From positions 114,204,001-114,268,000 of the forward strand of contig OX597818.1 of NCBI GenBank assembly GCA_951406725.2: a DNA stretch of 64,000 bases, written 5' to 3'. The position numbers and the translations under genes were made by a program. Positions 686 through 63,320 of this stretch are shown here, piece after piece. This DNA is from Octopus vulgaris. Its lineage: Eukaryota. Below the pieces are notes generated by a model. That model was not told where the DNA came from and searched no databases. It worked only from the letters and a program-made list of their open reading frames with translations. Each line of letters begins with the position of its first letter. Within the stretch, counting starts at the first letter, position 1.

Positions 686-1140
686 AGCAAAATTAAGGAA
701 CGGCCATAATAGGCCGTTCAACCCACTAGAAATAGCAGCCAAGGCTTCAACCGCAAAACAATATTAATTCCGTAAACCAGGAGAAAATTTAAAAAAACAT
801 TTACCCTGTAATACTTTATACAATGCATCGTTTCGTCTATTTTTTAATGGTAAATCAACCTGATTAAATTAAATCAAGCTAATCTTCCATAGGCCAATAG
901 ATTCATCAGTAAAGTAAGCCAGACGGGACAGATATTTTCACGAGGCAGCACCATTACTGTCTCGGCTATATCTGACCTAAAATTTTCAAATCATCGTACT
1001 CGTGCCAAATTTATCGGCAGCAAATATAAGCTGCCGATTCCATTTCGGAATTAAACAGAAAATTCATAATTAATCAATATAGGGTGGCAAAAAATTCAGC
1101 AGAAATTATTTGCCACCAGCAAATATTGATTAATATATAT
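686..1140 (-). mobile_element. HHR-bearing non-coding element, family H1 (other copies 8762-9035, 13462-13952)
   Basis: Flanked by (TA)n on both sides, shares sequence with two other copies in the window and contains a complete HHR. Confidence 0.75.
812..916 (-). ncRNA. Type I hammerhead ribozyme, extended stem II
   Basis: Minus strand reads TACTTTA-CTGATGA-ATCTATT...AATAGAC-GAAA-CGATGCATTG-TA-TAAAGTA. Stem I is TACTTTA/TAAAGTA, stem III is near-palindromic and the cleavage triplet is GUA. Confidence 0.8.
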
Positions 1141-1448
1141 TGATTAATATATATATATATATATATATATATATATATATTTATATATATACATATATAT
1201 ATATATAAATATATTTATTTATATATATATATATATATATATATATATATATATATATATACTAAGCAATTAAGGGTTTAGCAACGAATTGCCTCATCAC
1301 ACACCCAATTTAGAAATAGCAGTCAAAGGGTTATAGCTATTCTTTCTACTAAAAGGGAGATCTCAGTAAAAACACAGCACTTGAAAGGCAAACACAGACA
1401 GGTAAGAGAGAATGAAATGACGCCAATCTATCATACAAGTTTAAGTCA

Positions 1449-1539
1449 CCTACGGACGTACGTTTCGAAATCAAGTTTTAGGAAAGCATAAGAATTAGAT
1501 AATTCTACCTTACCCAACTTCTTTTCTCATCAGCGTAGG
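1449..1539 (-). ncRNA. Type I hammerhead ribozyme, intact core
   Basis: Minus strand reads CCTACG-CTGATGA-GAAAAGAAGTT...AACTTGATTTC-GAAA-CGTACG-TC-CGTAGG, with a 6-bp stem I, palindromic AC-GTAC-GT stem III and GUC site. Confidence 0.88.
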
Positions 1540-1719
1540 ATACTACAATGATGAATAATTGTATATTAAATTTTGAGATACTAGAAGGCATCATCTCAAA
1601 TCAGTGTCAGAGCGAGCTAAAGCATTACATTAAATGCTTTAGCTCGCTCTGACACTGAGTTGAGATGATGCCTTCTAGTATCTCAAAATTTAATATACAA
1701 TTATTCATCATTGTAGTAT

Positions 1720-1810
1720 CCTACGGTGATGAGAAAAGAAGTTGGGTAAGGTAGAATTATCTAATTCTTATGCTTTCTTAAAACTTGATTTCGAAACGTA
1801 CCTCCGTAGG
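1720..1810 (+). ncRNA. Hammerhead ribozyme copy with core substitutions (probably inactive)
   Basis: Mirror copy of 1449-1539 but reads GTGATGA instead of CTGATGA and CTC instead of GTC. Confidence 0.7.
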
Positions 1811-2601
1811 TGACTTAAAATTGTATGATAGATTGCCGTCATTTCATTCTCTCTTACCTGTCTGTGTTTGCCTTTCAAGTGCTGTGTTTTTACTGAGATC
1901 TCCCTTTTAGTAGAAAGAATAGCTATAACCCTTTGACTGCTATTTCTAAATTCGGTGTGTGGTGAGGCAATTCGTTGCTAAACCCTTAATTGCTTAGTAT
2001 TACTTAAATTTTCCTCGAATGAGGCTTTTACATGCCGAAATCTACTTGGTGTAATTAATAATTATTCCAAATTAATTAATTTCACCCTTTATTGTTACTG
2101 ATAACTATATATATATATATATATATATATATATATATATATATATATATATAAAAAAACAATTATAGCGTTGAAGGTGTTTAAAAGCCATTTAAGAAAC
2201 ACACAAAAACCGTTAGATTCATTTCAACATTTTAATTTAATTTACCAAAATATTTTTTATGAATATATATATATGAATATTTATATATATATATATGAAT
2301 ATTTATATATATATGAATATACATATATGAATATTTATATATATATATATGAATATTTATATATATATATATGAATACATATATACATATATATATATAT
2401 ATATATATAAATATATATACATATACATACACACACAGACGCATATATATATATGTATATATAAATATACATATATGTATATATGTATATATATATATTA
2501 TACATATATATATCCATATATACATATATATGTATATCTATCTATCTATCTATCTATATATATATATATATATCTATATATATATATATATATGTATATA
2601 T

Positions 2602-59838: not shown

Positions 59839-60235
59839 CTATATATATATATATATATATATACATACGCACACACACACACATATTGTAAAATATACAG
59901 CAGACCTACTGCATACCACACACTTTCACACGTTAAAACGATCAATAAAATAACAAAGAGCATACGCACTCATATATGATTACACCCAATATTATAAGAC
60001 ATTTCATATATCACGAATGAATCACGACGCAGCCCTCCTATTATACAGTTGTCGCCCAATCATAGCAAGCATTCAATAAATACATCCACGTTTATGCAAC
60101 ACGCATTCTGCCACACCGGTCTCCACTCTTTTTTGTATCATAGACGTGTTTCGTGCTGGATAATTTTTCCCCCAGAATGCATAACAAAACACAATAAAAA
60201 ACATAATACATAGTTTAATTGTTGCATATATATGT

Positions 60236-60575
60236 GGAGGCGCAATGTCTCAGTGGTTAGAGCAGCGGGCTTTGTGAGTGTTCATTGAGCGAAAACACCT
60301 AAAGCTCTATGAGGCTCCGGCAGTGAGTGGTGGCGAACCCTGCTGTACTCTTTCACCACAACTTTCTCTCATTCTTTCTTCCTGTTTCTGTTGTATCTGT
60401 ATTTCGAAATGCCAGCCTTGTCACACTCTGTGTCACGCTGAATCTCCCCGAGAATTACGTTAAAGGTACACGTGTCCGTGGACTGCTGAGCCACTTGCAC
60501 ATTAATTTCACGAGCAGGCTGTTCCGTTGATCGGATCAACTGGGACCCTCGTCGTCGTAACTGACGGAGTGCTAC
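60236..60575 (+). mobile_element. SINE family C
   Basis: GGAGGCGCAATGTCTCAGTGGTTAGAGCAGCGG head. Tail GGGACCCTCGTCGTCGTAACTGACGGAGTG is shared with ~22840-22870 and ~62985-63020. Confidence 0.75.
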
Positions 60576-61664
60576 GCATTACATATATAAGGTATGTGGC
60601 CAAGTGGTTAGGTTATTGCATTCACGGAAGATCGATCACTGGCTCGATTCGCGGACAGGGCGGCATGTTCTGTTCTTGGGCAACACATTTCATTTCGACT
60701 CAGTTATTCCCTGTGACGAAAAAGCTTTCTGATCAGTGGATATGTTGAGCTGCTCCCCTAGGTGGCGTCATTCGAAAGTTAAAACTATGTGAAAGGCATT
60801 GTGACTAGCTATGTATAACAACATCCGATAATCTGGTTGATGCGGTGATATGATGCATATATAATACAACAATACTAGACAGACTAGTTTACAATGAAAT
60901 GCGAAATGATAAGTTAATCTCGGTGGAATTTGAACTATGAATGAAATGATAGACGAAATGGCGCAAAGCATTTTCCCAGTGTGATAACAATTGAGGCAGC
61001 TCGACACCTTTCAAAGCAAAAATCAATATTAATTTATTCTGACCGTTAACAGGTACGATGTCAACTCTGGAGATCTTTTGAGGTTATTAAACTTTCTCAG
61101 ACACGAAAAGACTTTCCTGTTACTTGCCAGACTAGGAACAAGAGAATCACTGTTTGCTTGCATAATCACATACATCAGTTGCGATGACTGAATAATTTAA
61201 GGATTGAAAAGAAATTTCTAAGGATGAAATCTGAACGTACATATGCATATTTGTGTGCTTAGTGTGCTCGTTATTCGTGTTTCAACCTAAAGAAGCAATT
61301 AGCTTGTTAAAATACTGGTGACCCAGTATCCTTTGTGCCAGGTTTTTTCACATTTTCTTGTTGTGAAAGGGAGACGTTGTTCTCCTGTGACGTGCGCAAC
61401 AACGAATAGCATATTTGTGATAGAATCTGCCGGAATATGTGCAAATAATTTTGCATGTCCAGAGGACAATGATACACAAGGATCAAAAACATTGAGATGC
61501 ATCTGGTAGTGCAATGGAATCTCACACGAAACTAATTAAAATACGATGCTGCTGTAAAACTCCAATGGGATGAAAGGGAAATTTGGAGCTTGGTAAGATT
61601 TGAACGCAAAACGGTCAGAGCCGAAAGAGATATCGTTAGGCACAATGCTAGTTCTTTGTATTCT

Positions 61665-62687
61665 TTTATTCTTTTACCTGTATCAGTCATTTGACTGCGG
61701 CCATGCTGGATCACCGCCTTTAGTCGAATCAAATCGATCCTAGGATTTATTCATTGTAAGCCTAGTACTTATTGTATCGGTCTCTTTTGCCGAACCGCTA
61801 AGTCATGGGGACGTAAACACACCAGCATCGGTTGTCAAGCGATGTTGGGAGGACAAACACAGATACACAACATATACACACACGTATCTCTCTCTCTCTC
61901 TCTCTCTCTCTCTCTCTCTCTATATATATATATATATATATATATATATATATATATATATATATACATATACATATATATATATATACATATAAAAGTA
62001 AATAAATGGCACAACGAAGCACCGATATTTACTGGAAAATAGCGAACGTAATAAATACGACGCTAATGTATAGCTTCAGTGCGTATGTACTAGTAAAGAC
62101 GCGTGTGTGCAACAAACATGAAAAAAATTATCTTACCTCTAGGAAGAACATCTGAAAAATGAAAAACCTAGAAACAGACTCTCCAAAATACGTCTGCCAT
62201 ACGTATTTTGGAGAGTCTGAAACCGGTCCTGCATTATCCGTTTCTAGGTTTTTCATTTTTCAGATGTTCTTCCTAGAGGTAAGACAATTTTTTTCATGTT
62301 TGTTGCACACACGCGTCTTTACTAGTACATACGCAGTGAAGCTATACATTAGCGTCGTATTTATTACGTTCGCTATTTTTCAGTAAATATCGGTGCTTCG
62401 TTTTGCCATTTATTTACTTTTATATGTATAATTTTACCCTTACGGGCTATCCTTTACTGGAAAGCAATACTCTCGTATTGCATTACTATTTTCATATATA
62501 TATATATATATATATATATATATATATGTATACGACGGTTTCTTTCAGTTTCCGTCTACCAAATCCACTCACAAGGCTTTGGTCTGCCTGAGGCTATAGT
62601 AGAAGACACTTGCCCGAGGTGCCACGCAGTGGGACTGAAACCAGGAAGCATGTGGTTGATAAGCAAGCTTCTTACCACACAGCCACT
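61665..62687 (-). mobile_element. SINE family B split by a nested fold-back element
   Basis: The 3' half is at 61665-61885 and the 5' half at 62533-62687. The central microsatellite holds 61986-62495. Confidence 0.8.
61986..62495. mobile_element. Fold-back element with HHR 3' half at its centre
   Basis: Arms are ~61986-62175 and ~62240-62430. The spacer is a long hairpin (AGACTCTCCAAAATACGT/ACGTATTTTGGAGAGTCT) followed by GAAA-CCGG-TC. Confidence 0.82.
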
Positions 62688-63227
62688 GTTCGCTTTGCAG
62701 CCTCAGTTCAACAGCGAGACACCTTGGGCAATATCTTCTACTAAAACCAACTATCCGTACAGTATATAGAGAAGAGTTTTAACACGAGAAGATGGAATGA
62801 ACAGATTTGTGATAAACCCCGTTCATTTCATCTTCTCGTGTTAAAATTCCTACATATATATGTGTGTGTGTGCGTGTGTATGTGAGCGTGTGTGTGAAGT
62901 GGCTTAGTGGCTAGGGCATTGAACTCACGATCGCGTTGGGTCCTTCAGCCAGACACTTTATTTCACATCGCTCCAGGTCACTCAGCTGGGACCCTCATCG
63001 TCGTAACCGACGGAGTGTTCCTTATAAGTATATATATATATATATATATATATATATATATATATATATATATCGAGTGAAAAAACGGTATGGACGATTT
63101 GTTTTGGAGTCTCGCAATATCATGTACGCCTATGAGGATTTACTTTCCCAGTGAAACTCGGTTTTTTCTCAAACTTTTTCTCAAACCTGTTATAATGTGA
63201 TACATGTCTTTGGTGTGGTAATTGTAC

Positions 63228-63320
63228 GCGGCTGAAGAAGGCTTTTGATCTACCTGTTATATCAATTATGCACTGATATAAGAATAAGTTGTTCAATAAA
63301 GCCCGAAACATATGTACCGC
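63228..63320 (+). ncRNA. Type I hammerhead ribozyme, intact core, extended stem II (in a (TA)n-flanked element 63074-63350)
   Basis: GCGG-CTGAAGA-AGGCTTT...AAAGCCC-GAAA-CATATG-TA-CCGC, with palindromic stem III and a GUA site. Confidence 0.88.

Follow-up and report, generated by a model that had tools for sequence, protein, structure and literature searches.

A 64-kb stretch of the Octopus vulgaris genome (contig OX597818.1, positions 114,204,001 to 114,268,000, forward strand; hereafter the window, in whose own coordinates all positions are given) is AT-rich, with about 37% G+C and many (TA)n, (CA)n and (TAA)n runs, and contains remnants of reverse transcriptases of the long interspersed nuclear element (LINE) type and of mariner transposases. 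It resembles the intergenic or intronic DNA of animals. Motif scans of the 64 kb revealed 15 GAAA-type sites of hammerhead ribozymes (HHRs), which fall into nine sequence groups, A to I. Five of them (A1, B1, D1, F and I) are undamaged hammerheads: their core is perfect, the NUH triplet and all three stems are present, and stem III is self-complementary. The other ten (C1, E, B2, C2, D2, A2, A3, A4, G and H) are damaged. The sites and their surroundings are as follows.

812 to 916, minus strand: A1, with a 7-bp stem I, CUGAUGA, a 68-nt stem II domain (A-C mismatch at the base, 6-bp proximal helix, internal loop, long extension), GAA, a self-complementary 12-nt stem III including G-U (ACGAUGCAUUGU) and GUA; cleavage predicted 3' of 819.
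1066 to 1120, minus strand: family A hairpin, of the kind that makes up the long 3' end in other copies of the family (8980-9033; 13462-13518).
1259 to 2105: inverted duplication of family B between (TA)n runs, one arm having the longer 3' end.
1449 to 1539, minus strand: B1, with a 6-bp stem I, CUGAUGA, a 60-nt stem II domain (4-bp proximal helix), AC-GUAC-GU and GUC, cleavage being predicted 3' of 1455; the most canonical of the long-stem copies.
1720 to 1810, plus strand: B2, a decayed inverted copy of B1, with core GUGAUGA and stem III ACGUACCU.
2602 to 3363, both orientations: family C insertion, a partial direct tandem of a 353-nt unit with an inverted, 5'-truncated copy (about 3114-3363); the latter, C2, begins at the core box UUGACGA and lacks the 5' strand of stem I.
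2770 to 2814, minus strand: C1, with a 6-bp stem I, core CUGGCGA (A6 changed), a 14-nt stem II, AC-UCGA-GU and GUC.
8762 to 9033, plus strand: A2, a family A copy truncated 5' within stem II, without CUGANGA, with stem III ACGGUGCAUCGU and a long 3' end running into (TA)n.
13465 to 13950, both orientations: A3 and A4, an inverted family A pair truncated in stem II, without a core box, with stem III ACGGUAUAUCGU and 3' ends of unequal length, 147 and 251 nt.
18185 to 18244, plus strand: I, with a 6-bp stem I, CUGAAGA, a 26-nt stem II, the odd palindrome AUUGA-U-UCAAU and AUA; an inverted partial copy has its core at 18060, minus strand.
48675 to 48745, plus strand: G, possibly a decayed HHR, a hairpin (-19.5 kcal/mol) followed by GAAAC-ACGT-GT-A, with no recognisable CUGANGA or stem I.
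55066 to 55161, plus strand: E, probably inactive, with CUGAUGA, a 57-nt stem II, stem III AC-AUAU-GC and a weak stem I.
58916 to 58963, minus strand: D1, with a 4-bp stem I, CUGAUGA, a 21-nt stem II (one mismatch), AC-AGCU-GU and GUA.
59142 to 59189, plus strand: D2, an inverted copy of D1 with a perfect 8-bp stem II, stem III ACAGGUGU (palindrome broken) and a 3-bp stem I.
61985 to 62493, both orientations: H, an inverted duplication with GAAAC-CG-GT-C at 62219 after the hairpin of the inversion apex; the core box is missing, and the left arm is without the 21 nt bearing GAAAC.
63228 to 63320, plus strand: F, with a 4-bp stem I, CUGAAGA, a 66-nt stem II domain (A-C at the base, 6-bp proximal helix), AC-AUAU-GU and GUA, in a 280-nt insertion with (TA)n on both flanks.

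The CUGANGA and GAAA boxes and the NUH triplet are perfect in A1, B1, D1, D2, F and I; C1, B2, C2 and E have a single core change, and A2, A3, A4, G and H lack the CUGANGA box. The damage consists of the altered A6 in C1, the loss of U16.1 in E, and changes in the core or stem III in B2, C2 and D2. Six copies (A1, B1, C1, D1, F and I) display the type I topology, with an open stem I and three helices, the contiguous pairs amounting to 4-7 bp in stem I, 3-6 bp at the base of stem II and 2-5 bp in stem III. The self-complementary stem III plus loop III that characterises the dimer-cleaving HHRs with a short stem III is also found. Judged by these features, the sites are real type I hammerheads, with self-cleavage predicted 3' of H17. 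At the left edge of the window (1-40, minus strand), a CTGAAGA box follows a 7-bp hairpin and is cut by the edge, possibly a further hammerhead. The inverted partial copy of I continues into an apparently different interspersed repeat.

An earlier, sequence-only reading of this DNA had listed several of these ribozymes. Its coordinates for A1, B1, C1 and F were upheld by the motif scans, as were the lengths between core boxes of 68, 60, 14, 66 and 57 nt for the stems II at 812, 1449, 2770, 63228 and 55071, to which the 21 nt of D1 can be added. Four of its six palindromes (GTAC, TCGA, AGCT and ATAT) sit in a motif with a core and three stems, and ACGT and CG do not: at 48734, no CUGANGA within one mismatch occurs in the 130 nt upstream and no stem I is apparent by eye, and at 62219 no core box lies at the base of the 18-bp hairpin, which is the apex of an inverted duplication. 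AC-ATAT-GT, given as occurring twice, is present once (63305), since the site at 55071 reads AC-ATAT-GC and has thus lost U16.1, with a stem I of low probability (P 0.15). The hammerhead at 812 is real, its 12-nt stem III (ACGATGCATTGT) being absent from the earlier list; that at 2770 does have a 14-nt stem II, with a core that reads CTGGCGA; and I was overlooked. Furthermore, the label 'minimal' does not suit copies with the common stem III of 2 bp plus a tetraloop, which is also that of the RF00163 consensus. The biology proposed in that reading is largely textbook for the hammerheads of Penelope-like elements (PLEs) and retrozymes, and its list has several errors.

The motifs were compared with shuffled sequence. 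A descriptor blind to palindromes, run against 300 local dinucleotide shuffles, found four sites, all four self-complementary in stem III, for a shuffle mean of 0.013. A broader scan returned 11 sites as against 0.81 per shuffle (maximum 4), and a perfect core in five as against none in 100 shuffles. These 11 comprise the five perfect-core sites, C1, which was retained, and five other relaxed-core matches (987, 3965, 46730, 54815 and 57202), which were discarded as compatible with chance at that rate. The palindrome-blind strict-core matches of the broader scan are self-complementary in five of five cases, with at most one unpaired base. Moreover, within the pattern GAAAC-N4-GT-H the N4 is palindromic at 6 of the 12 real sites (two of them copies of one insertion), compared with 0.35 of 5.3 in 300 shuffles, none of which reached 6. 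Matches like site G occur 0.03 times per shuffle, at thresholds set post hoc. The recurrence of a self-complementary stem III across unrelated families far exceeds chance. That the hammerhead motifs are chance matches or by-products of inverted duplications is extremely improbable: although the hairpins at H and A3/A4 truly are inversion apices, and the relaxed-core descriptor has the background stated above, the strict descriptors find next to nothing in shuffled sequence, and the Rfam model Hammerhead_1 aligns end to end with C1 (E 0.0003) and B1 (E 0.001) in small searches. For A1, B1, C1, D1, F and I, a chance origin is refuted by the shuffle controls.

The predicted energetics of stem III favour dimers. 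In A1, B1, C1, D1 and F, predicted energies range from +1.1 to +2.9 kcal/mol for the monomeric stem and from -7.0 to -14.5 kcal/mol for the duplex of a homodimer, and the folding model gives the C15.2-G16.2 pair a probability of at most 0.28 in monomers. Unconstrained co-folding of two copies leads to a double hammerhead for A1, B1, C1 and F, and only partly for D1. This agrees with the earlier statement that palindromic stems III permit dimer cleavage, which was already in print. In family A, the centre of the palindrome is GC in some copies and AT in others, a double change under which self-complementarity is preserved.

All sites except G lie within a short non-coding insertion adjoining a microsatellite, and a run of at least (TA)5 is found no more than 280 nt downstream of 11 of 14 sites, as compared with 19.5% of random positions, the sites not being independent. 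Inverted duplications occur at A3/A4, B, C, D and H, and the inverted pairs have unequal 3' ends (147/251 nt in A, 205/313 in B and 185/232 in C), one arm extending 47-108 nt beyond the other in these three families. At locus C, positions 2955-3110 repeat 2602-2757 with one difference, which amounts to about 1.4 units of 353 nt with one direct HHR, and the unit is predicted to form a stable circle (z -6.0, 60 shuffles). The 3'-terminal hairpin of family A recurs about 290 nt upstream of the GAAA of A1 in the same orientation, which suggests that the unit, about 480 nt long as derived from the offsets, is tandem or circularly permuted. Families C and A thus form partial tandems with a single HHR each, and the window holds no run of two or more successive tandem units that each have a complete HHR, by which retrozymes are recognised; positions 2602-3363 are a candidate retrozyme-like element. 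The 5' truncation, inverted 5' copy, partial tandem and one-sided tail found here, together with the microsatellite target, are those of PLE-mobilised insertions, the first four having been described in the available parts of PMC8557442. From this architecture we infer that the insertions would be several unrelated families of short, non-coding, PLE-mobilised units targeting (TA)n, both remnants of pseudo-long terminal repeats (pseudo-LTRs) and non-autonomous units of retrozyme size. Two neighbouring fragments are of related interest: an HHR-less inverted fragment at 58617-58815, homologous to the tail of family E, starts within about 10 nt downstream of the cleavage-site equivalent, as expected from a self-cleaved RNA template, and a 266-nt near-perfect inverted repeat at 8420-8745, directly upstream of A2, has no other kin in the window by self-BLAST.

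Several copies carry a stem II two to three times the usual length, an arm that can hide them from some searches. The domains of 57-68 nt fold as hairpins, with z-scores of -6.0 (A1), -2.2 (B1), -2.9 (E) and -2.1 (F) from 200 shuffles each, and share a layout in which a proximal helix of 4-6 bp is followed by a bulge or internal loop and then by the extension. No sequence likeness was detected between the long stem II domains of the families (best p 0.12 over 10 pairs, G among them). Separate insertions of family A retain the apex and 3' arm of stem II, and stem II length is therefore a family trait there; families C, D and I have shorter stems II, of 14-26 nt. Because they are inversion apices, the hairpins found at H, with z -10, and at A3/A4, with z -8.6, do not count as evidence for long stems II. 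The junctions of 5' truncation or inversion at 8762, 13760, 3114 and 62196 lie inside stem II or at the core box, a pattern at four loci that may hint at pausing or fold-back of a reverse transcriptase at the ribozyme.

Taken together, these data probably reflect dimer-enhanced cleavage that is selected in the multimeric transcripts of source elements and is seen here in decaying copies, in which the extension of stem II is tolerated. In active source elements, tandem or multimeric transcripts would bring two HHR copies together, and their self-complementary stem III strands would pair into a helix of 8-12 bp in a double hammerhead; this pairing is proposed to give multimers a much higher cleavage rate than monomers, with unit-length RNA being set free for reinsertion. 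A number of results weigh against this interpretation. For D2, E, B2 and I, no double hammerhead emerged from co-folding, and stem I is improbable at equilibrium in single-arm contexts with flanks at five of six loci, with P at or below 0.01 for A1, B1, D1, F and I. The double change in family A counts for little, since A2 and A4 differ at 13 positions, including two other adjacent double differences, and the change is a single event. No PLE reverse transcriptase or GIY-YIG domain was found by Pfam (103 of the 168 stop-to-stop frames of at least 75 amino acids, and 109 short frames at HHR loci), and a motif scan for PLE protein remnants likewise found none in the window, so that the PLE link comes from architecture and membership in an autonomous family is unproven; the reverse transcriptases detected are LINE-type open reading frames (ORFs) with AP endonuclease or zf-RVT neighbours, or short unassigned fragments away from the HHRs. 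In addition, PLE insertion in vitro did not need HHR cleavage (PMC11167929), and eight of nine Xenopus retrozyme dimers were without cleavage (bioRxiv 10.64898/2026.07.22.740005), both sources being available in part. With regard to function at the present loci, no two HHRs stand in direct tandem in the window, the paired copies all being inverted, and according to the folding model neither stem I nor stem II survives in a transcript that spans the two inverted arms (P 0.0 at each of the three loci tested). The earlier proposal in its strong form, in which selection maintains strictly dimer-dependent cleavage at these loci, is decidedly unlikely. All intact copies are self-complementary and their dimer energies are favourable, yet 10 of the 15 sites are truncated or mutated, and the copies thus give no evident sign of selection. 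In the folding model, A1 and I can form a 4-bp monomeric stem III, and the monomer of the axolotl HHR Amex2, with a stem III of 2 bp plus a tetraloop, reaches 22% cleavage in 1 h and the dimer does much better, while type I retrozyme monomers of coral and mussel, described as similar in helix III, have cleavage rates of 0.8 and 0.1 per min (PMC7229834, in the parts available); these data soften any strict dimer dependence. Most of the window copies are decaying or dead-on-arrival and reflect past selection on their sources rather than present function, and the selection claim applies at best to source elements that are not seen here. The coral and mussel rates also favour a view of the copies as mainly monomeric ribozymes that draw help from stem I and from contacts made by the internal loop in the extended stem II, with palindromy being secondary or partly a product of quasi-palindrome correction at the DNA level. 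The bulge or loop after 4-6 bp in all four long stems is where such a tertiary contact could form, and the HHRs of Hydra-clade PLEs often have non-palindromic centres in the portion of the literature available. This view is nonetheless rather unlikely: the two central loop bases are complementary in every even-length intact copy, for which monomers offer no explanation, and the monomeric C15.2-G16.2 pair is improbable.

Under the interpretation of dimer-enhanced cleavage in source elements, a long stem II would consist of the canonical 4-6-bp proximal helix with its loop replaced by a hairpin extension of 40-55 nt, an addition that would be tolerated rather than required for the chemistry and that may have arisen separately in families A, B, E and F or have diverged there long ago. 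Alternatively, the extension may itself be functional, as a module for protein binding or folding delay, or as a pause or fold-back site of the PLE reverse transcriptase that makes the inverted 5' ends. Its recurrence in four families, its stable folding and its inheritance in family A are in keeping with this, as are the 5' junctions, which fall in stem II for A2, A3/A4 and H and at the core box for C2. However, the extensions have no common sequence between families, the stems of families C, D and I measure 14-26 nt, and the 5' junctions are few and compared without a null model, those of B and D lying about 90-100 nt upstream of the core; a function of the extension is accordingly judged unlikely. 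A broader version, in which hammerheads with a long stem II and a palindromic stem III are a recurring active architecture of the (TA)n-targeting PLE derivatives of this lineage, present in thousands per genome, invisible to descriptors and with a functional extension, can be entertained only tentatively. If it were true, the extension might substitute for loop-loop tertiary contacts or cause the reverse transcriptase pausing or fold-back behind PLE 5' inversions, and some PLE families reported as HHR-less would bear such ribozymes. A functional extension would offer a testable handle on the role of HHRs in PLEs and on the origin of 5' inverted copies; a neutral one would leave an annotation lesson and little else.

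That lesson concerns detection. The published descriptor of minimal HHRs allows no loop III (gaaannuh), a stem II of 3-7 bp and a loop of 3-10 nt (PMC4209133), which limits stem II to about 26 nt, and a re-implementation of this descriptor (Fig. S7) gave no match in the window. Rfam gave no match across the window at gathering thresholds (34 bits for Hammerhead_1, RF00163), and at E values of 10 or less only repeat-driven matches of the microRNA or small nucleolar RNA type among those listed (150 of 210). The Hammerhead_1 scores of C1, with its 14-nt stem II and core change, and of B1, with 60 nt, are 24.9 and 23.2 bits, respectively, and A1, F, I, D1 and D2 have no RF00163 match at E 10 or less. 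The earlier expectation that long stems II escape search models is borne out for the descriptor, but Rfam misses short-stem copies too, and stem II length is therefore only one reason for the oversight. With 15 sites and up to nine families in 64 kb, none of which reaches the Rfam threshold, hammerhead counts in such genomes may be far too low, and descriptors with a stem II limit near 26 nt seem to miss a whole subset.

The remaining repeats of the window include LINE remnants and a mariner-type transposase fragment (5155-7714, 37913-41968 and 53753-54295, plus strand; 24287-24879, minus strand), the LINE remnants carrying either an AP endonuclease plus a reverse transcriptase or a reverse transcriptase plus zf-RVT beside (TAA)n. 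Several families of repeats resembling short interspersed nuclear elements (33860-34080, 35276-35457, 50287-50541 and their copies) have 4-9 copies each in the window.

With regard to known systems, Lunse et al. reportedly described PLE pseudo-LTR hammerheads with a palindromic helix III in 2017. Earlier publications already cover palindromic stems III and how they vary from family to family, as well as opposite-strand pairs and dimer cleavage (PMC4209133, PMC3088659, PMC6765202 and PMC6466107, as far as these are available), and the combination of palindromic stem III with dimer cleavage, published in 2011 and 2014, is hence not new. In the available parts of Cervera and de la Pena 2014 (PMC4209133), the PLE pseudo-LTR hammerheads are, as here, of type I with a GAAAN-palindrome-NUH consensus, belong to many unrelated families per genome, are proposed to cleave as dimers, and occur singly or as opposite-strand copies 100-700 bp apart. 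They differ in that no PLE ORF lies in the window, and in that helix II is short in the 56 representatives of that study (by eye none above about 25 nt), whereas four families here have 57-68 nt. Rfam Hammerhead_1 has the same topology, with a consensus stem III of AC-GCGC-GU, although all window copies fall below its gathering threshold.

Animal retrozymes are derived from PLE pseudo-LTRs according to the accessible part of bioRxiv 10.64898/2026.07.22.740005. The non-LTR retrozymes of animals described there and in PMC7229834 share with the present insertions a non-coding unit with one type I HHR and a stem III of 2 bp plus a tetraloop, and the units of 353 and about 480 nt are in their size range (PMC7229834), a self-paired circle like theirs being predicted for C. 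Unlike them, the insertions here are partial tandems with one HHR each, PLE-style inversions and (TA)n targets, and the canonical loop I-loop II contacts of retrozymes are not evident in the window copies. The Hydra-clade and Naiad PLEs, as covered in the accessible portions of PMC8557442, share insertion into (TA)n, 5' truncation, an inverted 5' copy and a one-sided tail, and the Hydra HHRs have a short AC..GT stem III, often of odd length like that of I, although those listed have a short stem II, unlike the long-stem families. Of six stem III motif strings compared with the supplement of that paper, five had no match and the sixth had two. Naiads are reported there without canonical HHRs, and the idea that ribozymes such as these are the ones missing from Naiads (eight of which are flagged HHR_half_core) proved unsupported in the two octopus elements compared, as the 3' ends of Naiad_Obim and Naiad_Ovul have GAAAC before CUGAUGA, the reverse of the order here. 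These two 3' ends (File S5) keep a hairpin and GAAAC about 22 nt 5' of CUGAUGA, a permuted, hammerhead-like arrangement.

Longer stems II have some precedent. The Selaginella PLE-X1 HHRs in the accessible File S2 of PMC8557442 have a loop 2 of 35 and 29 nt, and PLE-X1_sMoe has a stem II domain of 53 nt; they are flagged there as non-canonical and, in those parts, are not treated as a class. Unlike the present families, they belong to plant elements that are endonuclease-less and target 28S, and they have no palindromic stem III of 8-12 nt. The 'long helix II' in the available part of PMC13725137 measures 6 bp. The literature searched, which excluded Lunse et al. 2017, Arkhipova et al. 2017 and the bioRxiv supplements, contained no account of stems II of 55-70 nt as a variant that recurs in animals. 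The long stems II that recur here amount to a modest variation on the structure of a known system, and are less familiar than the palindromic stem III that accompanies them.

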